DNA from: Pseudovirgaria hyperparasitica
Lineage: Eukaryota
Strand: one strand, 5' to 3'
NCBI GenBank assembly: GCA_010093815.1
Contig: ML996577.1
DNA: 64,000 bases
Part shown: positions 8,118 through 37,225 of the stretch, in pieces
How positions within the stretch are numbered: position 1 is the stretch's first letter
Layout of the letters: each line of letters starts with the position of its first letter
Notes under the pieces: generated by a model
The model's input: only the letters and a program-made list of their open reading frames with translations
Database searches by the model: none
What the model was told of the DNA's origin: nothing
Translations under genes and position numbers: made by a program

Positions 8118-8834
8118 TTCGACTCCTAACACTCCTTTTTGTTCGATGATACCGTGGCGTTGTACTTTCTTTCGATGCGTTATGACAGCGCGTAGACGGA
8201 GGCTTCCCGTACCGTACGAGATCTCTCCATCTTACGCATCCTGATGTATATGACTTACGGCCTTGATGATAACGATACTTCCTTCAGTGTGGACCGGGCT
8301 GTCCGGACTTTGCGTATGAAGAACACTTGCACCGGATCACTCTTTTCTAGGCACACAGTTCCTTTCTTGGCTGTGGTAACCATTTTAGTGCATATTCATA
8401 GAGCATTGCTGGCGTTATTAGACACCCGGGCAACGACGTAAATGCATATCACGAATTTTCTTTGATTGTTATGATATCCTCCTTCCTATTTGGGGCTACA
8501 TGATGCGCGCCACGTGATCCTGCGCTAATGCATCTTCCGCCTTCTTCCTGCAGGCAACCATTGTTGTTCATTATCAGAACATTTTTCTCTCTCTGGTGTT
8601 ACGACGAGCTGATAATTGTGAAGGGAAAGCTTTGCAGTCTACCCCTGTCGTTGTGTTGCTATATGGAGCCGCAGACACCGTGACCGTTTCTTGGACACCG
8701 CATGGACCTTTTCGGCAACACTTGCAGTTCTCGCGCATTTCTACCTACATCCTGTGGACGCAACCAGTTCAAAATGCTTCGACAGCCTTGAGCTGCTGTA
8801 TCCCCTACTTCGACTCTTCAGTTTTTTGCCTGTC

Positions 8835-10319
8835 ATGTCGATCGTTACTCGCCTCCAAACCTACACCAGCTGGCTAGTCCACGAATTCGGGCTTTATACT
8901 CTTTACAATGCAGGCCGCGATGTCCACATCATCATTGTGCTCCGGATGATGCGAGCGTTTTGTTTTGGCACTATAGGACTCATTTTCGCCTTGTATTTCA
9001 ACGCTCTTGGGGTCTCTGATGCTCGTATCGGGCTCTTCATGACTCTGACTCAGCTCGGCGACGTGGTTCTATCACTTGTCCTCACCTTCGGTGCAGACAG
9101 TCTGGGCCGACGTCGAGCATTACTACTCGGAGCAATGCTTATGGTTGTTGCTGGTGTGATCTTTGCAGGCACGGAGAACTACTGGTTGATGCTGGCCGCG
9201 GCGATAGTGGGAGTCATCAGCCCTGGTGGAAACGAGATTGGCCCCTTCCGAGCGATCGAGGAAAGTACTCTGGCACACCTCTGCGAGACGCCAGAACAAA
9301 GACCTGAGATATTTGTCTGGTATGTTGTCCTCGCCACTGTGACTGGTGCAGCTGGTCTTGTAGCCGCGGGGTTTATCGTCGATATATCGAAGAGCTTGGA
9401 CAATTGGACGGAAGTTGATGGCTACAAAATCCTCTTCTGGATATACGCCGGTGTTGGTGTCCTTCAATGTTTTCTTGCCCTCTTCCTGTCAAAGGACTGC
9501 GAATTTGACGATCGGGAAACCCCTGACGATTGCCGCAAACCAACCAGCTCCATCAACACGGATGAAAGCACTCCCCTCATCAACCCACCAAATGGCCACT
9601 CGATACCCCCATCCGACCCAGACGTCGATCATGAAAAACGCGGCTTCCGATTGCCGATCTCACGCATCTCCCCTTCCACTATCCCAGTCCTCCTCAAACT
9701 CCTTCTGCTCTTCAGCATTGACTCTCTCGCCTCGGGCATCATGCCATGGTCTCTACTCAACTATTACCTCGATCTCAAATTCCCAATCTCAAAGTCCACC
9801 CTTGGCACACTGATGTCACTCGCCTGGCTCTCCAGCGCCGTGTGCAACATATTCTCTGCCCCACTCGCGCGCCGCATCGGTCTGATCCCCACGATGGTTG
9901 CCACACACCTTGCTGCCGCAATCTTCCTGGGTCTAACCCCCGTGCCACGCAGTCTCAGTTTCACTGTTGCGCTCATTTTCGTCCGCGCCAGCTTGAATAG
10001 TATGGATCAAGCCCCGCGCTCAGCATTCCTGGCGGCTGTCATTAAACCGAGTGAGCGCACGCCTGTCATGGGCACGGTCAATGTGTTCAAGACGCTGGCT
10101 CAGGCGGCAGGACCTAGTCTGACGGGCGCGCTGGCGCAGGAGGGTAGGTTCTGGATTGCGTTTGTGGTGGCCGGGGCACTGAAGGTGGGGTATGATGTTG
10201 GGCTCTTGGTGCTTTTCTGGGGCAACAGGATCGGGGAGAAGGAGAAAGAGGGGGACAGCGAGGAAGAGGTAGATGGTGACGGTGACGATATTGGTGAGGG
10301 CGAAGGGCCGGCAAATTGA
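8835..10319 (+). CDS. Uncharacterised MFS transporter (intronless)
   Basis: About 12 hydrophobic segments, MFS motif A-like GADSLGRRR, and SPGGNEIGPFRAIEES and MDQAPRSAFLA motifs. First in-frame ATG is at 8835; the ORF track starts at an upstream TTG. Confidence 0.85.
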   Translation: MSIVTRLQTYTSWLVHEFGLYTLYNAGRDVHIIIVLRMMRAFCFGTIGLIFALYFNALGVSDARIGLFMTLTQLGDVVLSLVLTFGADSLGRRRALLLGAMLMVVAGVIFAGTENYWLMLAAAIVGVISPGGNEIGPFRAIEESTLAHLCETPEQRPEIFVWYVVLATVTGAAGLVAAGFIVDISKSLDNWTEVDGYKILFWIYAGVGVLQCFLALFLSKDCEFDDRETPDDCRKPTSSINTDESTPLINPPNGHSIPPSDPDVDHEKRGFRLPISRISPSTIPVLLKLLLLFSIDSLASGIMPWSLLNYYLDLKFPISKSTLGTLMSLAWLSSAVCNIFSAPLARRIGLIPTMVATHLAAAIFLGLTPVPRSLSFTVALIFVRASLNSMDQAPRSAFLAAVIKPSERTPVMGTVNVFKTLAQAAGPSLTGALAQEGRFWIAFVVAGALKVGYDVGLLVLFWGNRIGEKEKEGDSEEEVDGDGDDIGEGEGPAN

Positions 10320-15919: not shown

Positions 15920-15983
15920 ATGTACTTCTCTCCTTCATGAACGCCTAATGGCGAGTTCCTCCTCTACTTCGTTCCCGTCATGA
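15920..15983 (+). promoter_or_regulatory. Three chained upstream ORFs overlapping each other and the transporter start codon
   Basis: uORF1 15920-15940 (MYFSPS*), uORF2 15937-15948 (MNA*), uORF3 15948-15983 (MASSSSTSFPS*). Junctions are ATGA, TAATG, ATGA. Presence in the mRNA is inferred. Confidence 0.45.
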
Positions 15984-17807
15984 AGACCGTCACGAATGTA
16001 TACGCTGTCTGCGCCTTCGCCGCCCTTGGTACGCTATCTTGTTTGCTCCCGTATGCCCCCCATTGTGCGCTGACTTCGTTCTAGGCGGCTGCTTGTTCGG
16101 CATGGACATCGCAAGCATGTCAGGTGTGCTTGGAACCTCGGCGTACAAAAACTACTTCAATCATCCACGAAGCTTCACCCAGGGCTACATCACGGCCTCC
16201 ATGCCCTTGGGCTCCATCTTCTCAACTCTCGGTTCGTCTTGCATGTCGGATCGCTTCTCGCGCAAAATTGCCATCCAGTTGGCCTGCATTCTGTGGATCA
16301 TCGGATCTGCGTATGTCTTGCATAGTCTATCAAAATGTCCGACGCTGATTATTCTCCGCAGACTCCAATCCGGAAGCAATGGCGTCCCTATGCTCTGCGT
16401 CGGACGTTTCGTTGCGGGCTTAGGTGTTGGTATCGCCTCTGCGGTCGTGCCTGTCTACCAGGCCGAAATTGCCCCAAAGGAAATCCGAGGCCGCGTCGTG
16501 ACTTTGCAGCAATGGGCTATTACTTGGGGCATCTTGATTCAATACTTTGTGCAGTACGGTGCCTCTCACGTAGGCAATGGACCGGACTCTCCTACTCAAA
16601 GCACCGCTGCTTTCCGCATTCCGTGGGCCCTCCAAACCATTCCCGCTTTCATTCTCGCCATCGGCCTGTTTTGGTTTCCCTATTCTCCTCGTTGGCTCGC
16701 GGGCCAGGATAGGTGGGAGGAGGCCATTATGGTGCTGGCTGACCTGCATGCCCACGGTAATGTCAAACACCCAAAAGTCCTGGCGCAGTACCGCGAGATT
16801 GAAGAAGCCCTGCGATTCGAGAAAGAGGTGGCCGCCGCGGGCTGGAGCGGCCTTCTGGACAAGAAGATTGCGAAGCGCGTCCTCAGTGGCATGTCCGTCC
16901 AGACCTGGGCTCAGCTCTGCGGCATGAACGTCATGGTAACTTTCCCCAGTTCCCTCTCTTCATGGTCAATTCACTAACCAAACCTCCCAACCAGATGTAC
17001 TACATTGTCTACATCATGGAAACCGCAAACATTGGCACCCCCCTCCTCACAGCCTCCATCCAATACATCATCAACGTCGTCCTCACCCTTCCCGCAATCC
17101 TCTACATCGACACTTGGGGCCGCCGTCCCACGCTCCTCCTCGGCGCCCTCTCCATGATGGCCCTCCTCTTCACCTCCGGCGCCCTACAAGCCATCTACGG
17201 CACGCCCACCACAGTCCCAGACTCCGACCTCTCATGGCACATTGTCGACAACGCGCCCGCATCGCGCGGCGTCGTCGCCTGCTCCTACCTCTTCGTCGCC
17301 ACCTTTGCCGTCTCCTGGGGCCCCGTCTCCTGGACATACCCGGCCGAAATCTTCCCCAACCGTGTGCGCGCCAAGGGCACCAGTCTGACGACAGCAACAA
17401 ACTGGGTGTTCAACACCGTGCTTGCGTTTGCCGTGCCGCCGCTGCTGTACCGCATCGGCTGGCGCATGTACATCCTCTTCGGCACCTTCAACGCCATCGC
17501 CTTCGTGCAAGTCTTTTTCACCATCCCCGAGACGAAGCAGTTCAGCCTCGAGGAGATGGACGCCGTTTTCGAGGGCCCCGCCTGGCGCGGCCCCAAAAAG
17601 GAGAGTCGGCTCGATGATCTCGAGCTGCAGATTGAGTGCGGCGTCGTCGATGTGCGGGGGCCCAAGGGCTTGGATTGGGAGGATCGCGGCAGTTGGGAGG
17701 GCAGCTCGAGCATGTCGAAGGGTGGCATTGGCGTCGAGACCACAGTGGAGATGCGCGAGAGCTGGGTGGATAGTGGTGGTTGGGCGGGGCCGGGTCGTGC
17801 GCTGTGA
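15980..17807 (+). CDS. Sugar porter, HGT1-like high-affinity glucose/hexose transporter
   Basis: MKTVTNVYAVCAFAALGGCLFGMDIASMS, VPVYQAEIAPKEIRGR, QQWAITWGILIQY, QLCGMNVMMYYI, WGPVSWTYPAEIFP, PETK. Introns 16029-16084, 16311-16361, 16936-16994. Confidence 0.9.
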
Positions 17808-20707: not shown

Positions 20708-23065
20708 TCACGACACAGTCAACGTGGCATTTCCCCGGAGATCCTCGCTCGAACTGCCAATCCAGACCACGAAATCACCAGGTTCGACGGTGTACTTCAT
20801 ACGGATGTCCCAAACACCCAACTTGCTCACATCAACCGGAATCTCCACAGTCGTCGTTTCTCCGGCCTCGATAAACATTTTCTGAAACCCCTTCAGCTGC
20901 TTGTTCGGAACCACAACCGACGCAATCACATCCTGGACGTAGAGCTGCACGACTTCCGCTCCGGCCCTCGAGCCGGAGTTTGTCACCCGGACTGACGCCG
21001 TTATAGTGTCAGACGCGCTAGCTGTCTTCGATGAAAGCGAGACGTTTGAGTAAGTAAAGTTAGTGTATGACAAGCCATAGCCGAACTCGTAGTGCGGGCG
21101 AGGATCACCCAGGACATAAGCGTGTCCAAACACAAGGGTTCCGTTGTCGGTAACATACCCCGGCTCTGGATATTGTCGCGCGGAGTTCAGATAATCATAA
21201 AAAACAGGCAACGTGCCGACGTCGTATGGTATGCCGACGCTCAGCTTCCCCGAAGGATTCACTTCACCGTAGAGTATGTCAGCGATAGCGTTTCCTCCCT
21301 GTTCAGAAGGGTAGAACTGTTGCACCACTGCGGCTGCGTTGTCGCTGATCCATGGCTCGGTTATCGGTTTCCCAGACACGTAGACGACAATCGTGGGCTT
21401 GCCAGTCTCGATGACTGCTTGTACGAGAGGGCCCATCGCTCCGACCAGAGACAGGTCAGCTACGTCAACATGTTCGCCGGTGGTGGCGTTGAGCCCTGCC
21501 CAGAGTTCTCCTTGATCCCGGGACCATGTGCCGACAAAGACGACGGCGACGTCGGCTGCCGATGCAGTTGCGACGGCCTCCGAAAATCCGGATTGATCTG
21601 CTGACCATCTTTCGCAGCCTTGAGCAAAAGTCACAGTACCAGTGGATGCGTTTCGGATGCCTTGTAGAGGTGTGACTGCGTCAGGATTGTACTGTGATCT
21701 GAAAACGACGTAGTCGCCGTAATTCATGAAATTAGACATAGGCCCGATGACTGCGACGTTTGCATCTTTAGATAGCGGGAGGATGCTATCTTTGTTTTCG
21801 AGGAGAACGATGGATTCCGCGTCAAGTTTGCGAGCAAGTTCAACGGCTTCGGGAGTGTGTATCAATGATGCAGTCTGGCTGCTTGGTACACCAAGATAGG
21901 GATTCTCGAAAAGGCCCATCTCGAACTTTACCCTGAGCAGACGAGAGACAGCAAGGTCAACAGTCCCGATGTCCAGCTTCCCAGATTCGACCAAAGAAGG
22001 TATAGAGCGGAAATTGAAGCTCCCACCCCCCATCTCAACGTCATTGCCAGCTGGTAAAGCGTACGTTGTGACAGCATCAGAGTCGATCGGATTCGTTGCG
22101 CACATCTTGAACGAGTTGCATAATCTGTCTGTTCCACCGGCATCAGACATGACAAAGTATTTGTAGCCCCACTCGTCGCGCAAGATTTCCGTCAATGTAT
22201 GATAATCTGCCACAGCTGGAACACCGTCGTATGAATGGTACGCAGACATGATACTATACGCCCCGCCATCAATGATAGTCCTGTGGAAAGACGGCAACCA
22301 AGTCGTTCGAAGTTCACGCTCGCCGCCATGAACAGGCCCTGTGTTGAGACCCTGCTCTGGAGCACTGAATCCAGCAAAATGCTTCACCATGGCGCTGACA
22401 TTGTTCGACTGTAGCCCCTTGACAAAGTTGTATCCCATCTCTCCGGCTAGATAGGGATCCTCGCCGTAGGTTTCTTCGACACGCCCGAAGCGGAGCTCGC
22501 GGGCTAGGTCGACCACGGGAGCAAATAATTGATTGACCCCAAGGGCAAGAGATTCCTGAGCAATGACCGCGGCCATTTCTTGGATAAGCTCAGGATTGAA
22601 AGAGCAAGCAAAAGCAATCGGACTGTTGAAGACGGTCGCATTGCCGATGAGGAAGCCGTGTATGCCTTCAGACTGTACAAGCGCCGGTATGCCCAAGGTT
22701 GTGTTCGCGATCAAGTAGTCTTGCGCTTTCTTGGTGTTTTCTGCGATCCATTGCTGCGGCACCGCATAGCCGACATAGAAGCTTCCCTGCTTGTACTCCA
22801 TGTTTGCTACAAGACCGGAGTAGTTGAACGCATTTGTTGAGGAATTCATCCAGTTGCCGATGTCTCCTTGCATCAATTGAGCCATCTTGTCTTCAATTGT
22901 CATCCGAGAGAGCAGATCAGCGATTCGGGCATCGACTGATGCAGTCGGGTCCTTGTAAAGCACACCGCTGGTGTTGTTGATGGTGTTGCCATTTCCGGGT
23001 TGCTGCGCTGCTACAGTTGACGTACACGCTACCCATAGGGCAAGCGGAATAGCTGTGTACCACAT
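20708..23065 (-). CDS. Secreted GH3 glycosidase, probable isoprimeverose-producing oligoxyloglucan hydrolase (IpeA-like)
   Basis: Intronless 785 aa ORF with a signal peptide. GH3 motifs KHFAG, nucleophile VMSDAGG, acid/base ATTGEHVD, C-terminal Fn3-like domain. Segments QGDIGNWMN, FYVGY, PEQGLNTGPVHGGER, GTWSRDQGELWAGLNATTGEH and QQFYPSEQGG match my recollection of Aspergillus oryzae IpeA. GH3 is secure; the subfamily call needs alignment. Confidence 0.88.
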   Translation of the reverse strand: MWYTAIPLALWVACTSTVAAQQPGNGNTINNTSGVLYKDPTASVDARIADLLSRMTIEDKMAQLMQGDIGNWMNSSTNAFNYSGLVANMEYKQGSFYVGYAVPQQWIAENTKKAQDYLIANTTLGIPALVQSEGIHGFLIGNATVFNSPIAFACSFNPELIQEMAAVIAQESLALGVNQLFAPVVDLARELRFGRVEETYGEDPYLAGEMGYNFVKGLQSNNVSAMVKHFAGFSAPEQGLNTGPVHGGERELRTTWLPSFHRTIIDGGAYSIMSAYHSYDGVPAVADYHTLTEILRDEWGYKYFVMSDAGGTDRLCNSFKMCATNPIDSDAVTTYALPAGNDVEMGGGSFNFRSIPSLVESGKLDIGTVDLAVSRLLRVKFEMGLFENPYLGVPSSQTASLIHTPEAVELARKLDAESIVLLENKDSILPLSKDANVAVIGPMSNFMNYGDYVVFRSQYNPDAVTPLQGIRNASTGTVTFAQGCERWSADQSGFSEAVATASAADVAVVFVGTWSRDQGELWAGLNATTGEHVDVADLSLVGAMGPLVQAVIETGKPTIVVYVSGKPITEPWISDNAAAVVQQFYPSEQGGNAIADILYGEVNPSGKLSVGIPYDVGTLPVFYDYLNSARQYPEPGYVTDNGTLVFGHAYVLGDPRPHYEFGYGLSYTNFTYSNVSLSSKTASASDTITASVRVTNSGSRAGAEVVQLYVQDVIASVVVPNKQLKGFQKMFIEAGETTTVEIPVDVSKLGVWDIRMKYTVEPGDFVVWIGSSSEDLRGNATLTVS

Positions 23066-23934
23066 CTTGATGAAGGACCTAGCAATAGCAAGATGCGTGA
23101 CCAGGAGTGAATGACTGTATACTTATTCTCTGAGGATATGGACTTGAGTAGGCCACTGCAACCGACTTGGTCTTGCACAAGCCGCTACGCAGCATCATCC
23201 GTGGGTCAAGCTTGCCCTTGATGCAAGATCCTCGCTAAAGTCACCGCCCATGACACATATTTGATTGATGATGGGTTTGCATTGGTGTCACGGAAGTTTT
23301 CTGAAAGATCTCTGTCTAGGGTGTATCCTGATAGTGTGGAGGAGTTGCGGCGAACATCAGCAGGGTCAGAAGCGAGCCGGATTTTGGGTCGAACAATACC
23401 CAGGAGGCATAATAATTCATGATTTGGCAAAATTGACCGGGATAGATGCAGGCGTGTCGTTCAGTATATGTCGCATGGAATCGTGTGGAGAATCGAGGTC
23501 AGGTGAAGAGATGTTGACACTCTGTAGCTATCGGTACGTTTGTCGAACTTTGGATCACGGTAGTCCTATGGGCGGATAATTCTGTCACCTTGCAACTAAC
23601 AACCCCGCAGCATAACCATTTTCGATTTGGCATCTTCTCCATATATTGCAAGATATGTTTTGGCGCCTTACTCACTGGGCCAATCAGATTCACTTCGTCC
23701 GGCAGTCGGCCTCTAGTTTTGATGCATGTATACCGCCCTGACACAGAAAGACACGCTCCGCAGGCATGGAACCACCGGGGTGGCTTTCTGGTCTCCAAGT
23801 ATCTTTTGACATGGCTTGGAGGATGGCATTCAGCCGAGCATGGAGGTTTATATACTCGGCCTAGCCGTCAGCAACGTTGAATACATCGCTGTTACATCCA
23901 GCTCTACTTCAAGCACCAGGGAAAGGGACCGAGA
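23066..23934. promoter_or_regulatory. Bidirectional promoter of the GH3 and sugar porter genes, with candidate XlnR/Xyr1 and CreA sites
   Basis: CGGATAAT 23573-23580 (CGGNTAAW); minus-strand GGCTGA 23830-23835 and GGCTAG 23861-23866; minus-strand SYGGRG at 23603-23608. Confidence 0.5.
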
Positions 23935-25618
23935 ATGGGGAGACTTTTCAATATATCGCTTGCCGTGTTTGCGGCAACGGGGTCGTTTCTTTTTGGTTAT
24001 GACTCTGGTCAGTCTTGACAGTCTTATAGAAACACAAAAGACTTACTTTCGTTCAGGCGTGATGACGGATGTCATCCAGAGTCCGCACTTTCTACAGACT
24101 TTCAACACGGTCCCAACGTCTCCTATCATCGGTGCTATCAATTCCACATTCAGTGGTGGTGCCGTGTTTGGGTCTCTGATGGGAGGCTTCACCATGGACC
24201 GCTTCGGACGCAGAATGACCATCTTTGTGGCTGCATGGATTTGTCTCGTGGGCGCCGTACTTCAGTGTGCCGCACAGAACTTGGCCATGATACTGATTGG
24301 CCGCATATTAACTGGTGAGCCTGCTGTGAGAGTAAATAGATCCTGCGCTCACATGAAGAAGGCTGGGCGGTCGGTCTGATGTCCATGTCTGTCCCAATCT
24401 ATCAATCAGAATGTGCGCATCCACGCGTACGAGGCCTCATTGTCGGATTGACCCAGCAGATGATTGGGGTGGGATTCATCATCTCTACTTGGGTAAGCTA
24501 CCTATAAGTCCACCTTTTTACTATCCACTCACATCAAATAGGTCGGATTTGGCTCTGCACACGTTCCCGCGACAAGTGCTTTCTCCTGGCGCTTTCCGTT
24601 AGCCTTTCAGTGTGTCCCCTGTATTATCCTGATAATCGGTCTCTTTTTCTTTCCCGAGTCGCCCCGCTATCTAGTGCAAACCGATCGTGAGGATGAAGCG
24701 CTAAAGGTTCTGCGCAAGCTTCACTACGATGGCACAAACGATGACTGGATTGATGAAGAATTCCGCGAGATCAGACTGACTATCCAAGCGGAGAACACTG
24801 TGACAGAACCTGGTTGGTTGATCATGTTCCAAGTACCGACGTATAGACGCCGCCTTGCACTTGCTACCTTCATTCAAGTTTTCACCCAATTTACCGGCAT
24901 CAATGTCAGTCGAATCTGTTGCCTAGCCATAGAAGTGCACTGACGGAAGTCATAGGTCATTGGTTACTACCAAACAATCATGTATAAGAACCTTGGAATC
25001 GAAGGCAATCGAAATTTGTTGGTTACGGGCATATACAATTGTGTTGGTCCCGTCGCCAACTTGATCTTCATTATATTTATACTCGACCGCGTCGGAAGAA
25101 GAAAGCCACTTCTCTTTGGAACAATCGGTATAACGCTCGCCCTGATGTGCGAAGCTATCATCAACTCTCAGTTTGATAAAGCATCATCACCGGGTCAAGA
25201 ACACAATCTCGCGATAGCCGGAGTATTCTTCATCTTCTGTGTGTCGGTCATATTCAGCTGGTCCTTCGGGCCTTGTAGTTGGGTGTACATGTCCGAGATC
25301 ATGCCTTATCAAATTCGAGGTCGTGGCAGTGCTTTTGCAACAGGAATTGGGAACTGGCTTGTCTCAACGTTTTGGTCACAAGTATCTCCGATCGCGCTTG
25401 GAGCCATAACTTGGAAGTTCTACTTCATCTTCTGCGCTTTCAATGTTCTGATTACGTTTCCCAGCATCTGGTTCTTCTTTCCGGAGACAAAGCAATTATC
25501 GCTGGAGGAGATTGATCTCTTGTTTGGAGACCGTGCGCTGGGTACTCTTCCAGAGAATCTGGATGATGCCAAGGGAGCGTCTGAATCGGTTCGGCAGGTT
25601 GAGGATACCGAAGCGTAG
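23935..25618 (+). CDS. MFS sugar porter (candidate isoprimeverose/xyloglucan-oligosaccharide importer)
   Basis: MGRLFNISLAVFAATGSFLFGYDSG, MDRFGRR, VPIYQSECAHPRVRG, FPESPRYL, QFTGINVIGYY, DRVGRR, SEIMPYQIRGRG, PETK. Four introns at about 24008-24056, 24315-24361, 24494-24541, 24905-24954. Substrate inferred from gene context only. Confidence 0.9.
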
Positions 25619-26114: not shown

Positions 26115-28556
26115 ATGAAGTTCCGCGATGGTATGCTGCGATTGCTTCGTCCTAGAAGACGACGATGCATTCTGAATGAACACTGACCTGCCACAGGAAT
26201 GTGGCTCGTCGCCGCAGACAAGACCGTTCAGTATGCCGAAGATATCCATACCATCACGCCCTCACAAAACAATCGCTCCTTGTCACTGTTATGCCCAACT
26301 CGACACATTCGGTCACGTGGCGACACACTCAACTTAGCAACCATGAGTGTCGACATTACCGCCGAATTCGACGGTGTGATATCTGTCGAAGTCGCTCACT
26401 TCCGCGGCGCACGCAAAAAAGGGCCAGACTTCGAGCTGTACCCTGATGGTAGACCTGATGGTCCATCGGAGCTACTCAAGGACGACAAAGGCACAACATT
26501 GACCAGTGGACGCCTTGCTGTGACTGTTGGTCCCAACAAGGACACCTTCGATATCAAGTTCCACGAGTCTGGTAATCCTGGTCGAGACTTGACGAGTCTG
26601 CTTAGTCGAAGCGTGGGTTTTGCATACACTCCAGCGCTCACTTCACCGAAGCAAGTGGAAGATCTGGTGGGAGCTGGTATCAAACACTACATCTTCACAC
26701 AGACAGAGCTGGGAGTCGGCGAGAGTATTCATGGTCTTGGTGAGCGCTTCGGCGCTTGGAACAAAGTTGGTCAGAGTATCGAGGTCTGGAATGAGGACGG
26801 CGGCACCAGTTCGGAGCAAGCGTACAAGAATGTCAGCTTCTGGCTCAGTAACAGAGGCTATGGTGTGTTTATCGATACACCGGATAAGATCGAGCTAGAA
26901 ATTGGAAGCGAGCGGTCATGTCGCCTACAGACCTCTGTTGAAGGCCATCGCTTAAAATGGTATATAATCTACGGTCCAACGCCAAAGGAGGTCTTGACAA
27001 AGTACTCCATACTCACTGGGAAAGCTGGCAAGGTTCCCGCATGGAGTTTTGGCCTTTGGCTATCAACCAGCTTCACGACAAACTATGACGAGGCAACCGT
27101 CAGCCACTTTCTTGAGGAAATGCAATCTCGCCAGATCCCTGTCGAAGTCTTTCACTACGACTGCTTCTGGCTGAAAGAGTTCCACTGGTGTGACTTCGAA
27201 TTCGACATTGCCGCGTTCCCAGATCCAGCTGGATCGATCAAACGTCTCAAAAGTGCGGGATTGATGCGTAAAGTCTGTGTGTGGACGAATCCGTACCTGG
27301 GCCAAGCATCCCCCATATTTGCGTACGCTGCCGAAAAGGGGTATCTACTGAAGCGACCGAACGGCGACATCTTTCAGTGGGACTTGTGGCAGACAGGTAT
27401 GGGCATAGTCGATTTCACGAATCCAGCTGCCAAAGAGTGGTTTGTCGGGTGTTTGTCTAAGCTGTTCGATCTCGGCGTAGACTGCATCAAGACAGACTTT
27501 GGTGAGCGTATTCCCACACGCGATGTTGCATGGCATGACACGAGCGTCGATCCTTCCCGTATGCACAACTACTACTCTTTCATATACAACAAATGCGTTT
27601 ATGAAGCACTTCAGTCACGATACGGCGCAGATCAAGCTGTGCTCTTCGCACGCACGGCCTGTGCGGGAACGCAACGCTTCCCACTCGTAAGTCCATATTA
27701 CTCCGTTGTGTTATCCCATAACTCACGCCAACAGATCTGGGGTGGTGACTGCGAGTCCACACCTCCTGCCCTTGCCGAGTCTCTTCGTGGCGGTCTGTCC
27801 ATTGGTCTGTCATCTCACACATACTGGTCCTCAGACATCGGCGGTTTCGAGGGCTCCCCGCCACCCTGGATCTACAAACGTTGGGTCGCGTTTGGACTTG
27901 TCTGCTCGCATTCGCGTCTGCATGGCAGTAACAGCTACCGTGTACCTTGGCTGATCGACAACGATTCCAAAGAGAAGGAGAATTGTACTGAAGTTCTAAG
28001 GACGTGGGTTCAGCTGAAGAGACGTCTGATGCCATACCTCTTCGCGCAGGCACAGGAGAGCGCGGAGAAGGGATGGCCCTTGAGTGTTCGTGCAATGGCG
28101 CTAGAGTTCCCTGACGACCCGACCGCGTGGTTCTGTGACAGGCAATTCATGTTGGGGAGTCAGTTACTTGTCGCGCCCGTTTTCAATGAAGATGGGAGCG
28201 TGGAGTTCTACCTTCCTCCGGGACGCTGGACTAACTTCTGGTCTGGAGAGATCGTGGATACGCCTGGATGGAGGAAGGAGTCCCATGGTTTTTTGACATT
28301 GCCACTGTATGTGAGAGACGGCACCTTGTTGGTGCTAGGGAAAGAGCCTGCCGAAACTGATACGGAAGGGTTTGCGTATGACTGGTTGACTGACGCCGAG
28401 TTGAGACTTTACTCAACGAAGGAAGGTGATAAGGCGAGGCTGGTTGACAAGAGCGGCGTGGATGTGGGAATTCTTGAGGTGGGTGATGCTGGCACTGTAA
28501 AGGGAATGGACTTGTTGAAAGGCTCACCTAAGGTTGCTCACATCGTGAAGGAGTAG
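26115..28556 (+). CDS. Intracellular GH31 alpha-xylosidase (YicI/XylQ/AxyA type)
   Basis: MKFRDG|MWL N-terminus with no signal peptide (intron ~26131-26196). GLGERFG, NEDGGTSSEQAYKN, WSFGLWLSTSFTTNYDE, nucleophile KTDFGERIP, acid/base WGGDC, DIGGFEG, HSRLHG. In-frame 48-nt intron 27687-27734. Confidence 0.93.
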
Positions 28557-31949: not shown

Positions 31950-34170
31950 ATGCCCACAAAACTCCCACATTTCAACTGGTATTTTACCCTTCAGCCTTGC
32001 GGCTGGTCACATACGTGTAGCTACTAACACGCGTTTAGGGACTCACACAAGTTGAAGAAGCGGAGATACCTCATCCTACCGTGGATTCAAGATCCCACCT
32101 CCGGCGCCATACAGGAGACAAAGAATGGCCGCGCAACTCTGGTATTCGCCCAGCGCCATGAAGCAAATACTACGGAACTCTTCTTTGACCTGTTCTTCGT
32201 CGCAAACTTGGCGCTCTTCACTCAATACCATTCAATCACCGATCACAAAGGTTTCTTGACCTATATCGGTATGCCTAGTCCGTTTTCTATCGACTGCCAA
32301 CATGCTAATTAGTTTACCAACAGAATTCTTTGGTCTCATCTGGGGAACATGGTTCTCCATAACTCTCTTCGACGTCCGCTTCGGTCTCGACTCTGTATTC
32401 GAGCGTGCCTGCAAGTTCGTACAGTATGCCGTTTTTGTAGTCTTCGCCTTGGTCGGATCCGAATTCGAACCAGGCAGCAGGTCTTATCTTCCCAAAGACA
32501 ACGTCAACTTCCGCATCCTCAGTTGGGCCTTGTGTGCCAGTCGCGCGCTGCTCATGATCCAGTACCTGGTTGTGCTCTACTTCGTCATGAAGCGTCGCTA
32601 TCGAAGGCTGTATTTCCCTCTAGCTCTCAACGCTTTCTGGTACCTTGTCACCGCCACCGTGTTCGGCGCAATGAGCGCTGCCTTTCCCAACACTGGAAAT
32701 CATCATCCTCACATCTACTTGATGTGGTACGCTGCCATATTCCTCGAAATTGTCTGCGTCCTCTCTGTCTCGACCATTTGGCGCACCTTGAGTTTCAAGC
32801 TTACTCACTTGGCTGAACGTATGAGTCTATTGACATTGATCATCATGGGTGAAGGTATCATTGGAATCACGAAGACGGTTTCGATTATCCTCGCCAAGGG
32901 GCCGGTTTTCTCATACTTCGGCCTGGTCTTGTGCATTCTATTCATCATCTTCTGGCTCTACTTCATCTACTTCGACAACACTCCTCGTGGCCACTTTGGA
33001 ACCATCCGTCAACAAGTATGGGCATTCCTCCATTTCCCATTCCACTTGTCCGTCGTTGGTATCGTTGAAGGCGCCCAGCAAATTGTTCGCGCACGTTACG
33101 TGATTGACGGCGACAAGAAATTTAACAAATCTGCTATGCAATACTGCGTCAAAGAGAATCTCGATGGTATAAAATTGCAGAACAAGCTTGCCGAACTGAT
33201 AAGATACTACGACTTTCCCTCCAAGGCTCAGTCCAACCAATTTTTGCCTGACATATACGAAAGCTTGTATGCTGTTGGTAACCACACCGACATCTGTAGT
33301 CCAGAAAACTCCGAAGGCTACGTCAATGCTAATGGCGAGATGATTGCCTATCCCGATGAACTCTGGTATCTCTGGGAGAAGACGATTTCCGCAGTGTACG
33401 CCGGCACTGTGACAGACAAACAAGTCCCCGACTTCGACGACGCCTTGACTTCCTCCATCAGCGCATGGGAGACGGCTTACAGCTACTTCTGGGGCGCCCT
33501 CGGACTCCTGGCCTTTACAACAATCCTAATGTTCTTCATGTGCCGCCGTTCGAAGCGAGACATCTACACCTACTTCGGCATTGGCGTGCGCGTGTTCGTC
33601 CTCGTCATGGCCGCCTTCCTGGGCGGCTACGCCGCCGCAAACGACGACTTCTTCACCAGCTTCATGTACTCCTCCGCCGTCGTGCCCACCGCCATGGCCT
33701 GCCTCTTCCTCATCGTCTTCGTCGACTCCATCGGCCGCGGCCTGTCCAACTACGCCCTTAGAAACACCCACAAGGACATCATCGACGACGAGGCCGAGGC
33801 CATGGAGCACGACCACCTGCACGGCCACCACCACGACCACGACGGCTCAGACGACGAGATCGAGCTCAAGCCCCAGGCCCACACCCCCGGCCTCCAACAA
33901 CAACACGAACACTGGTACGGTGGTGTCGCGTCGCCGCCTCTGCCCGGCCCGGCACCGTTGGGCTACAGTGCGGTGCAGAACCCGGGCACGCCTGGCACGC
34001 CGGCCTTTCACCAGGAGCATACCGCTTACGGCGGTGCATACAGCCACGAGAGAACACAGAGCGATACCATAGACCCCGCGTACGGCCACGCGAGGCACCC
34101 AAGCGACGCATACGATAACCCGGACTTTAGACGCACGAGTGGATTTGGCGGCGGGCCAGCGATGGCCTGA
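31950..34170 (+). CDS. LtrA (low temperature requirement A)-like multi-pass membrane protein
   Basis: ELFFDLFFVANL, HLAERMSLLTLIIMGEGII, WAFLHFPFHL motifs; many TM segments; introns ~31979-32038 and ~32269-32323. Confidence 0.82.
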
Positions 34171-34609: not shown

Positions 34610-37225
34610 TCACAACCCATTCCACCAAACCGTCTTCGCAACCTCAAACTCTCCCTTCAGATCTGCCTTTGCACTGCTATCGCCCACAAGCACATCAAAC
34701 ACGCCCTTCTCCATGATCCACGCATCTCTCTCCTCGTCCCACCAGCTCGCCGCATACTTCTTCTGCATCTCCACCGTGACCTCTTTGCTCTCGCCCGGTT
34801 CCAAGTCCAGCTTTGCGAAGCCTTTGAGCTCCTTCACCGGCCTGCCGACACCAGACTCGCGCTGCGAGACGTATACCTGCACCACCTGCGCGCCCTTGCA
34901 CGCGCCTGTGTTCTCCACATCAACCGTCGCCGTAAGGGTCGTGCCGTCATCAACGACTTTGAGGCCAGACATGTTGAACGTGGTGTAGCTTAGGCCATGC
35001 CCAAAGGGGAACAGAACGTCGCGCTTTATCTTCTCGTAGAACCTGTATCCGACATAGACGTCCTCGCCGTACAAGGCGCGGCCACGCTCACTCTTGTAGT
35101 TCAAGAACGCTGGGTTGTCCTCGTTGCGGATGGGGAAGCTGAGCGGTAGTTTCCCGCTCGGACACACTTTTCCAAAGAGGACGTCGGCGATTGCGTTGCC
35201 TGTCTCGTTTCCGCCGTACCAGGCCTGCATGAGTGCAGGTACGGAGTCGATCCACGGCATGGATACTGGCGTGCCGGATTGCATTACGACGGCGGTGCGT
35301 GGATTGGCTTTGCTGACGGCGGCGATGAGATCATTGAGTGTGCCGGGCAGATCCATATGTGGTCTATCATATCCTTCAGACTCAAATTCGGAGTTGAGAC
35401 CAGCGCAGATGATGACTTGATCGACTTCCTTTGCAAGAGCTACGGCTTTGGCGATATTTGTTTGGGAATCACTAATGGCAAGACCGCCGAGACGGATGCC
35501 GCCGCTGGCCATGACTGTTGCGCCTTTGCGCTTCACCGTTTGAGTGATGCTGGATCCCCATTGCAAGAGGAGGCTATACGTCTGGCCGCCTTTGAGGTGC
35601 TTTACACCTCTCTCTTCCTCTGTGCCGGCGGAGAAAAAGTTCTCGCCGATACGCTGGTGCGTGGCATTATCGACGACTAGCTCGCCGTCGACATAGAGTT
35701 TTGCGGTGCCGCAGACGGCAACACCAAATTCGAAGTCGCAATCTTCCTCCACAGTGATAGTGCCCTCGAGGTCCATGTAGAAGAGATCTGGATTGACCTT
35801 GGGATGGTAGTAGTCTGCGAGTAGCATAACAAGGTTGTCAATGTGGATCTCGTCGACAAGGTTGCGAACGGAGCTCGACGGTGGTTCATTGTAGACCTTG
35901 CCAATCATGCCGACTTGCCCGTCCTTTGTTCTGGTCTCAGGGGCAAGTTGTGGTAGATTCTTATAGGCAATAGCGCCAAGTGTGTATTTGACGTCCTTGG
36001 CCTGAGCCGTGATGCCCTCGAAAGGTGTTCGTGCATAGTAAGGAAGAAGGGATGCGGAGCCACCACCAGAATATGTTGCAACTTTAGCATTAGGACCAAT
36101 GACGGCGATTGTCTTTGCTGGGTCAAATGGCAAGACATTGTCGTTGTTTTTGCATAGTACGATGCCGGCAGCAGCAGTGTCTCGTAGGCGTTCCGCAGTC
36201 TCTGGCGAATCTATGGTAGTTTCCGGTGCATTTTCTGGTATGTTGAGCTTGCCAACACGATTGACCAGATTTAAAACGTTTCGAACACGCTCGTCGATCA
36301 GATGACTGGCAAGTTGTCCGCAACGGATCGCAATGTGGACGTTCTCTTTGCGGACGACTGGCGGACCAGGCATCTCCAAATCAAGTCCTGCTTTGATCGA
36401 CTGTGTCGCAGTATAAGTACCGAACCTAGATGGCTGTCAGGGGAATCCAGTGGTAGCAGTTTGCGGAACGTACCAGTCACTCATGACAAGCCCGTTGAAA
36501 CCCCATTCTTTGCGCAAAATATCCGTCAGTAGCTTGGGACTTTCACTGACATGAGTATCGTTTACTTTGTTATATGCCGTCATGTAGCATAGTGGTTTTG
36601 CATCGCGCTGCGCGATCTGAAACGGCATCAAGTAGATCTCTCGCAACGCACGTTCAGTCAAGATGGAGTTGACAGCTTGTCGTTCATCTTCTTGGTCGTT
36701 ACAAACAAAGTGTTTTACCGTAGCGGCCACGCCTGTGGACTGAATTCCAGTGACAGTTGCGGCAGTCATAGCACCAGCTAGATACGGATCTTCACTGAAG
36801 CTTTCAAACCCGCGCCCTCCAAGCGGCGAACGTTGCATATTCGTTGTCGGACCAAGAATGACATGAGCCCCCTTGGCAATGGCTTCTTTCCCTTGAAGCT
36901 GGCCACCGGACTTGATCAAAGCTGTGTCCCATGTAGCGGCAAGGCCAGTGCCACATGGGAAGCATGCAGCCGGTACGCCTTTAAAGAAGCGAGTGCCTCT
37001 CACGCCATTGGGACCATCTGATGTACGTAGTGACGGGATCTTCAGTCGAGGAATGCCCTTGGTGTGCCAAAAGTCGATTCCTGAGAGTCATATCAGGAAG
37101 TGCGGCGTGACAGTAGAAGGCTGTAAGCTGGTACCTGATAAGAGACTGATTTTCTCATCCAAATCCAATTCTTCCAACAACGCCTCTACGTCAAGTTCCT
37201 TGAAGGTCGTGTCAACGTTACTCAT
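34610..37225 (-). CDS. Intracellular GH3 beta-glucosidase with a PA14 insertion (BglI/BglH type)
   Basis: No signal peptide. [33 protein letters not shown], nucleophile [33 protein letters not shown]. Introns ~37134-37082 and ~36473-36426. Confidence 0.93.

Follow-up and report, generated by a model that had tools for sequence, protein, structure and literature searches.

A sugar porter gene linked to GH31 alpha-xylosidase and IpeA-like GH3 genes is a candidate isoprimeverose importer gene in Pseudovirgaria hyperparasitica and related fungi

Background

Bacterial uptake of alpha-xylosylated sugars offers the closest described parallel to the locus studied here. In Lactobacillus pentosus (xylP-xylQ) and Escherichia coli (yicJ-yicI), the gene of the importer adjoins that of a cytosolic GH31 alpha-xylosidase, and both XylP and YicJ are GPH family transporters. 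A comparable arrangement is present in a stretch of 64,000 nucleotides (hereafter, the window) of contig ML996577.1 from the genome assembly GCA_010093815.1 of Pseudovirgaria hyperparasitica, a Dothideomycete of the order Acrospermales, in which a transporter gene at 23935-25618 on the plus strand lies between a GH3 gene and a GH31 gene. An earlier reading of the letters of this stretch, made without database searches (the sequence-only reading), proposed that this gene encodes a fungal isoprimeverose transporter. The fungal protein differs from its bacterial counterparts in being a sugar porter (TIGR00879, PF00083) with no MFS_2/GPH match, and the fungal cluster, unlike xylP-xylQ and yicJ-yicI, often adds a GH3 enzyme of the secreted, isoprimeverose-producing type.

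The Aspergillus oryzae pathway (IpeA, AxyA, AxyB, AxyC and LacA) is the described fungal system nearest to the enzymes of this locus; the window GH3 matches the IpeA type and the window GH31 the AxyA type. In the parts available to us of the A. oryzae xyloglucan-oligosaccharide papers, including PMC10792220, the word stem 'transport' occurs 0 times and no transporter is named. Neither a characterised fungal isoprimeverose transporter nor a description of the three-gene cluster was found in the main texts of the literature searched; within that literature, the remark of the sequence-only reading that it was aware of no such characterised transporter holds.

The MAL, lactose and cellodextrin systems of yeasts and Aspergillus each use a disaccharide/H+ symporter of the sugar porter family together with a matching cytosolic hydrolase, and the genes are often neighbours. 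The logic of a disaccharide porter with a cytosolic hydrolase, as in fungal MAL clusters, lactose permease with beta-galactosidase and cellodextrin transporter with beta-glucosidase, is alike here, whereas the predicted cargo is alpha-1,6-xylosyl-glucose and no regulator gene accompanies the cluster. The transporter also resembles GlcP, STP10, STP6 and XylE in its common fold, in the Asp of transmembrane segment 1 (TM1) and the Arg of TM4, and at most of the aligned sugar-contact positions; it differs from them in its low identity (24-29%), in failing the GlcP and XylE cut-offs and in having Thr269 in place of the first Gln of TM7.

In this study, the structure, family, conservation and genomic context of the transporter gene were analysed. 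The reading that we favour, with modest confidence, is that the protein is a plasma-membrane, proton-coupled importer of isoprimeverose (alpha-D-xylosyl-1,6-D-glucose) that feeds a cytosolic alpha-xylosidase.

Results

Transporter gene and protein family

The coding region at 23935-25618 (+) comprises five exons (23935-24007, 24057-24314, 24362-24492, 24542-24904 and 24956-25618), begins with an ATG at 23935-23937, ends with a TAG at 25616-25618 and encodes a product of 495 amino acids (aa). The four introns are all of the GT..AG type, are 47-51 nt long and are all spliced out in contigs from the public runs X1 and X2, which come from one sample. The spliced translation of 495 aa showed a 100% letter match to protein P0003, 'general substrate transporter [Pseudovirgaria hyperparasitica]', and the protein atlas gave generic names only, e.g. 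'general substrate transporter' and 'STL1'. The gene model, the identity to P0003 and the spliced contigs confirmed the complete sugar porter that the sequence-only reading had placed at this position.

Every coding exon tested matched Pfam Sugar_tr, and the whole protein scored 337.9 bits against this model (PF00083, cut-off 22.3), covering model positions 2-452 of 452. The protein also passed the NCBIfam model of the sugar porter family, TIGR00879 (318.8 bits, cut-off 237.8). The Pfam scan of P0003 listed Sugar_tr, MFS_1 and TRI12 alone, with no GPH/MFS_2 match, and the scores against the GlcP equivalog NF052357 (210.2 bits vs a cut-off of 750) and the XylE equivalog NF007484 (186.5 bits vs 608) fell below the thresholds. 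By these profile matches, the transporter is assigned to the sugar porter (SP) family of the major facilitator superfamily (MFS), outside the GPH family and outside the GlcP and XylE equivalogs, in agreement with the sequence-only reading, which had set it apart from the GPH family of XylP.

An AlphaFold2 model built on an alignment of 25 orthologues reached a mean pLDDT of 82.8 and a pTM of 0.81, and in Foldseek this model was similar to STP10, STP6, XylE and GLUT3 (TM-scores of 0.80-0.84, probability 1.00). The predicted model has the twelve-helix MFS fold, as judged by its likeness to solved sugar porters; single helices were not cleanly separated in a crude hydropathy scan. The last 25 residues are disordered, and there is no extended sensor-like tail. 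The motifs DRFGRR, PESPRYL, DRVGRRK and PETKQ are all found in the translation, and we take the signatures of sugar porters to be G-R-[KR] after TM2 and TM8, PESPR after TM6 and PETK after TM12. Asp23 and Arg107 correspond to D22 and R102 of GlcP in the alignment and are both invariant among the 25 orthologues; D22 (the acidic residue of TM1) and R102 (the Arg of TM4) presumably form the proton-coupling pair of GlcP, as in XylE. Q143, Q270, N275 and W384 are kept in the GlcP alignment, at positions that we assume to be sugar contacts. Among these positions, the sole difference is Thr269, which stands in place of the first Gln in the TM7 'QQ' pair and is invariant in the 25 aligned orthologues; a second, unrelated porter of the window, described below, also lacks that Gln, and the change is therefore uninformative on specificity.

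The two neighbouring hydrolases

To the right lies a gene for a GH31 alpha-xylosidase of the YicI/AxyA type (26115-28556, +; 775 aa, P0123), recognised by Pfam GH31 domains, NF007940 and contigs and separated from the transporter gene by 496 bp. Its exons lie at 26115-26130, 26197-27686 and 27735-28556, and both introns are skipped by contigs. The sequence-only reading had the position of this gene right but not its start, as the short first exon at 26115-26130 precedes the open reading frame (ORF) that it had begun at 26199. The protein passes the NCBIfam 'alpha-xylosidase' model NF007940 with 952.7 bits (cut-off 606); against E. coli YicI, its score was 712 bits. Its motifs KTDFGE and WGGDC have, we assume, catalytic roles. 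The N-terminus MKFRDGMWLVAADK is not hydrophobic, and hydropathy thus points to the lack of a signal peptide. So close a match to bacterial YicI is unusual between a fungus and a bacterium, and the gene may conceivably have been acquired from bacteria long ago. AxyA of A. oryzae belongs to GH31 subfamily 3, lacks a signal peptide and has isoprimeverose as its preferred substrate (Km 0.2 mM), and enzymes of its type favour isoprimeverose over larger xyloglucan oligosaccharides (PMC10792220, from the parts available). The window GH31 is probably an AxyA orthologue.

The left neighbour is an intron-less GH3 gene (20708-23065, -; 785 aa), which is divergent from the transporter gene and was recognised by Pfam domains and contig coverage. 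The protein carries the GH3 N-terminal, GH3 C-terminal and Fn3-like domains of Pfam. It scored 1169.6 bits against PDB 21ji and 1155.2 bits, over residues 37-784, against 5yot (A. oryzae IpeA), and the next family below the IpeA type, beta-xylosidase, reached 456 bits; none of the NCBIfam equivalogs was passed. The N-terminus MWYTAIPLALWVACTSTVAA is hydrophobic and signal-peptide-like, as judged by hydropathy alone. A Phaeoacremonium enzyme with just 65% identity to IpeA keeps the isoprimeverose-producing activity, according to the part of PMC6325624 available. By these matches, the left neighbour is a secreted-type, IpeA-type GH3 enzyme with a predicted isoprimeverose-producing activity.

The two enzymes agree with the division of labour stated in the sequence-only reading, namely, that isoprimeverose is made outside the cell by the left enzyme and cleaved inside it by the right one. 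The former is consistent with the scores of 1155-1170 bits to solved isoprimeverose-producing enzymes and the hydrophobic N-terminus, and the latter with the NF007940 score far above its cut-off and the lack of such an N-terminus.

Conserved linkage in metagenomic loci

Metagenome contigs were scanned with the orthologue alignment, thereby yielding 71 loci, which were then searched with the three window proteins. A transporter of at least 58% identity was present in 62 loci, 30 of which had a total flank of at least 3 kb; these 30 were collapsed at 97% DNA identity into 23 distinct groups. A GH31 gene was found at most 5 kb from the transporter gene in 17 of the 23 groups, mostly at a distance of 0.35-1.5 kb. 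An IpeA-like GH3 gene was also present in nine groups (9/23), all of them within the 17 that were linked to GH31, and neither enzyme was near the transporter in the remaining 6/23.

The linkage has been kept through rearrangement. At least five gene orders and orientations of the trio occur among the metagenomic loci and the window: GH3(-) transporter(+) GH31(-); GH3(-) GH31(+) transporter(+); GH31(+) transporter(+), with GH3 not in the available flank; GH31(-) GH3(+) transporter(+); and the arrangement of the window itself, GH3(-) transporter(+) GH31(+). None of the other window ORFs between 8 and 40 kb recurs in related metagenomic loci, and the outer flanks of six scanned loci hold unrelated genes that differ between loci. 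Among these window ORFs and in the flanks of these six loci, no regulator gene and no cytosolic beta-glucosidase gene was found to travel with the trio.

A maximum-likelihood tree was constructed from the C-terminal 195 residues of the transporter (64 rows; pieces shorter than 150 aa, namely L065, L066 and L070, were dropped). The window and every linked locus fell into one clade (support 100/99), in which linkage holds for 17 of the 18 informative groups; the remaining one, L042, has an upstream flank of just 2 bp. A FastTree analysis of 112 full-length proteins and nine fragments placed the branches of the groups L058, L059, L060 and L061 beside Hortaea, in a Capnodiales-like part of the same transporter orthogroup.

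On the Capnodiales-like transporter branch (L058-L061, L057, L018, L006 and L020), no GH31 or IpeA-like GH3 gene lies nearby. At L065/L066, a different GH3 gene is found about 6.7 kb downstream of the transporter gene.

Conserved linkage in named genomes

Named genomes were tallied by hand from the homologue lists of the transporter, GH31 and GH3 (best 120 proteins in each list). The transporter and GH31 had longest contigs of equal length in 24 of the 26 species shared by the two lists, ten of which had contigs of at most 260 kb, and the misses were Aplosporella prunicola and Diplodia seriata. The corresponding count for the transporter and GH3 was 20 of 30 shared species. Among the matches listed, consecutive or adjacent locus tags were found in five species: Malbranchea cinnamomea (4131 for the transporter, 4132 for GH3 and 4133 for GH31), Thermocarpiscus (5114, 5115), Hymenoscyphus albidus (274, 275), Polytolypa (03281, 03282) and Helicocarpus (02060, 02061), which we take to belong to four classes. 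The Eurotiales contributed almost no linkage information to this tally. The linkage is kept across several classes of Pezizomycotina, and in both data sets it is tighter to GH31 (17/23 groups and 24/26 species) than to GH3 (9/23 and 20/30). Co-occurrence with IpeA/AxyA orthologues, the check suggested along with the sequence-only reading, thus turned out positive in most lineages and negative in one Capnodiales-like lineage and one Sordariales-like locus.

Transcription and regulatory sequence

None of the runs listed for the locus is recorded as RNA, and the record of the X1/X2 sample states no kind; the contigs skip GT..AG introns and were therefore taken as transcript assemblies, and all three genes of the trio as transcribed. 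GH3, the transporter and GH31 are all present in these spliced contigs. The transporter transcript has a 5' leader intron of 77 nt (23534-23610, +; GT..AG), which is skipped by spliced contigs, and these contigs extend to about 25790, giving a 3' untranslated region of about 170 nt. A single X2 contig (5045 nt) joins the GH3 gene directly to the spliced transporter transcript, and an X1 contig on the GH3 side extends as far as 23504; the head-to-head transcripts of the two divergent genes therefore appear to touch or overlap. This arrangement between 23066 and 23934 suggests a very compact control region common to GH3 and the transporter.

The upstream regions of related loci were compared by k-mer counts and by an alignment of 12 upstream stretches. 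In nine loci (L008, L015, L029, L070, L037, L043, L045, L053 and L031), an element of the form ATTGGCGGA[AT]A.T was found 5' of the transporter gene, about 330-420 bp from its start codon; these loci are related, and the element is to be read as a lead. It is usually followed by CCCCGC, and CCGCCAAT is nearly absent elsewhere in the element-bearing loci. The window copy, ATGGGCGGATAAT, has one mismatch to the element and lies at 23568-23580 (+), inside the 77-nt leader intron, and the CCCCGC of the window is part of the 3' end of this intron. The element may be a common regulatory site or a conserved leader intron. In comparison with mononucleotide shuffles, the cluster promoters contained CGGDTAAW 11 times vs 4.8 expected (standard deviation 2.1) and SYGGRG 161 times vs 130 (standard deviation 11); divergent promoters were double-counted in these figures and the loci are related, and no weight is therefore placed on either excess.

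Other genes and rejected candidates

At 15949-17804 (+), on the far side of GH3 and some 3 kb from it, there is a second, unrelated sugar porter gene, made up of two ORF pieces, with an intron near 16.9 kb and the motifs FPYSPRWL and PETKQ. It does not accompany the trio and was rejected as a rival candidate, as related loci matched it at the paralogue level only (31-46% identity), and on the transporter gene itself. The wider neighbourhood also contains an MFS_1-type transporter ORF (8622-10316, +) and an ORF with a bacterial LtrA-like domain (32260-34167, +), neither of which is conserved with the trio. A beta-glucosidase-like GH3 gene with a PA14 domain lies at 34613-37087 (-), about 6 kb downstream of GH31, and does not accompany the trio elsewhere.

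A literature lead in Trichoderma reesei was dropped. Tr69957 had been considered as an orthologue adjoining the GH31 gene Tr69944; in the parts of PMC5879799 available, it is described as maltose-permease-like and 69944/GH31 is unmentioned. Further T. reesei papers give 69944 in tables only. A full-text search for the Botrytis tags Bcin07g05900, Bcin07g05910 and Bcin07g05920 found no papers.

Discussion

In the model that we favour, the secreted IpeA-like GH3 would clip units of isoprimeverose off xyloglucan oligosaccharides, at their non-reducing ends, outside the cell, the porter would import isoprimeverose together with a proton, and the cytosolic YicI/AxyA-type GH31 would hydrolyse it to xylose and glucose; the trio would form a small catabolic cluster that is probably co-regulated. 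The argument rests on the partners of the transporter. The GH31 alpha-xylosidase is predicted to be cytosolic, and an imported substrate would therefore be needed. The closest steady partner of the porter is this enzyme and not the secreted GH3, as would be expected if the porter supplies the substrate of the alpha-xylosidase. The enzyme type prefers isoprimeverose and the often co-clustered GH3 is predicted to make isoprimeverose outside the cell; an importer of isoprimeverose is therefore favoured, with close small alpha-xylosylated sugars perhaps as further cargo. Substrate, transport direction, proton coupling, plasma-membrane location and co-regulation are all predictions.

Several observations weigh against the assignment to isoprimeverose. 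For the whole orthogroup, it is gene context alone that points to this cargo. All of the closest solved relatives (GlcP, STP10, STP6, XylE and the GLUTs) transport monosaccharides and share 24-29% identity with the protein, and the aligned sugar-contact positions look monosaccharide-like; the relatives compared were solved structures and members of the same orthogroup. The unlinked groups L058-L061 occupy separate branches of the maximum-likelihood tree; three of them have less than 2.3 kb of flank on one side. L065, which stands among Sordariales orthologues in the FastTree analysis, and L066 have neither enzyme within 10 kb on each side and are a real exception to the linkage. In Aspergillus spectabilis, the contigs that carry the transporter orthologue and the IpeA-like GH3 differ in length. 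XlnR-type GGCTAR sites showed no enrichment in the window (40 found vs 42.3 expected) or in 40 cluster promoters (27 vs 27.3).

Part of this evidence would also suit an ordinary xylose and/or glucose H+ symporter whose gene shares location and regulation with hemicellulose genes and which takes up the extracellular end products of xyloglucan, an alternative that we regard as unlikely but worth serious weight. Besides the relationship to GlcP, STP10, STP6, XylE and the GLUTs and the mostly kept sugar-contact positions, it would fit the survival of unlinked orthologues in one lineage, and the extracellular alpha-xylosidase AxyB of A. oryzae indicates that free xylose and glucose arise outside the cell in at least some fungi (PMC10792220, from the parts available). 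However, a monosaccharide symporter leaves unexplained why the tightest partner is a cytosolic alpha-xylosidase (17/23; 24/26) and not the secreted GH3 (9/23; 20/30), and why the pair has been kept through at least five rearrangements. The equivalog cut-offs of the monosaccharide transporters GlcP (210 vs 750 bits) and XylE (186 vs 608) were failed, and the cytosolic, isoprimeverose-preferring enzyme would have no supplier.

An importer of another oligosaccharide, be it a larger piece of xyloglucan, a different alpha-xyloside or a beta-glucoside (cellobiose, for example) that remains once IpeA has acted, with breakdown finished inside the cell, appears improbable. Fungal sugar porters can be promiscuous, as T. 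reesei Tr69957 is reported to carry xylose, mannose and cellobiose (PMC5879799, from the parts available), and eight of the 17 GH31-linked groups have no IpeA-like GH3 in the available flank, so that IpeA is not a strict companion of the pair. Against this, the preference of AxyA-type enzymes for isoprimeverose over larger xyloglucan oligosaccharides (PMC10792220, as above) gives larger fragments little place. Branched heptasaccharides would probably also be large for the transporter fold, and no cytosolic beta-glucosidase accompanies the transporter-GH31 pair.

Some fungal sugar porters influence cellulase induction. That the present protein acts mainly as a sensor (transceptor) or in inducer uptake controlling xyloglucan genes, or resides in an internal membrane, is very hard to credit: deletion of Tr69957 changes cellulase and xylanase expression (PMC5879799, from the parts available), but all transport-family signatures are present here without a sensor-like tail, and linkage to a catabolic hydrolase is the expectation for a nutritional importer.

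Isoprimeverose import accordingly remains the reading that we prefer for the transporter. A wider claim, to which we give slightly less than an even chance, is that the orthogroup represents the first eukaryotic isoprimeverose/H+ symporter and that, together with GH3 and GH31, it forms a persistently linked and repeatedly rearranged xyloglucan-disaccharide cluster across Dothideomycetes, Eurotiomycetes (Onygenales), Sordariomycetes and Leotiomycetes, having reached the bacterial xylP-xylQ solution independently with a non-homologous transporter. The label of a function convergent with that of XylP, which the sequence-only reading had used, is apt in that the transporter family differs. An old transfer of a bacterial GH31 gene, after which a resident fungal porter was recruited, is a conceivable origin.

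Conclusions

The enzymes of fungal xyloglucan breakdown are well described, and the uptake step is unnamed in the literature searched; a cytosolic alpha-xylosidase that prefers isoprimeverose implies such a step. A conserved and specific candidate transporter makes this uptake gap directly testable. If the assignment is true, the transporter would be useful for the engineering of yeasts to use xyloglucan-derived sugars. Isoprimeverose has been treated as a product of interest (PMC11975219), and removal of the importer might raise its yield in accumulating strains. The assignment, if true, would also add a new cargo to the repertoire of fungal sugar porters and clearly exemplify how transporter families with no relation to each other, one in bacteria and one in fungi, were recruited to the same enzyme partner.

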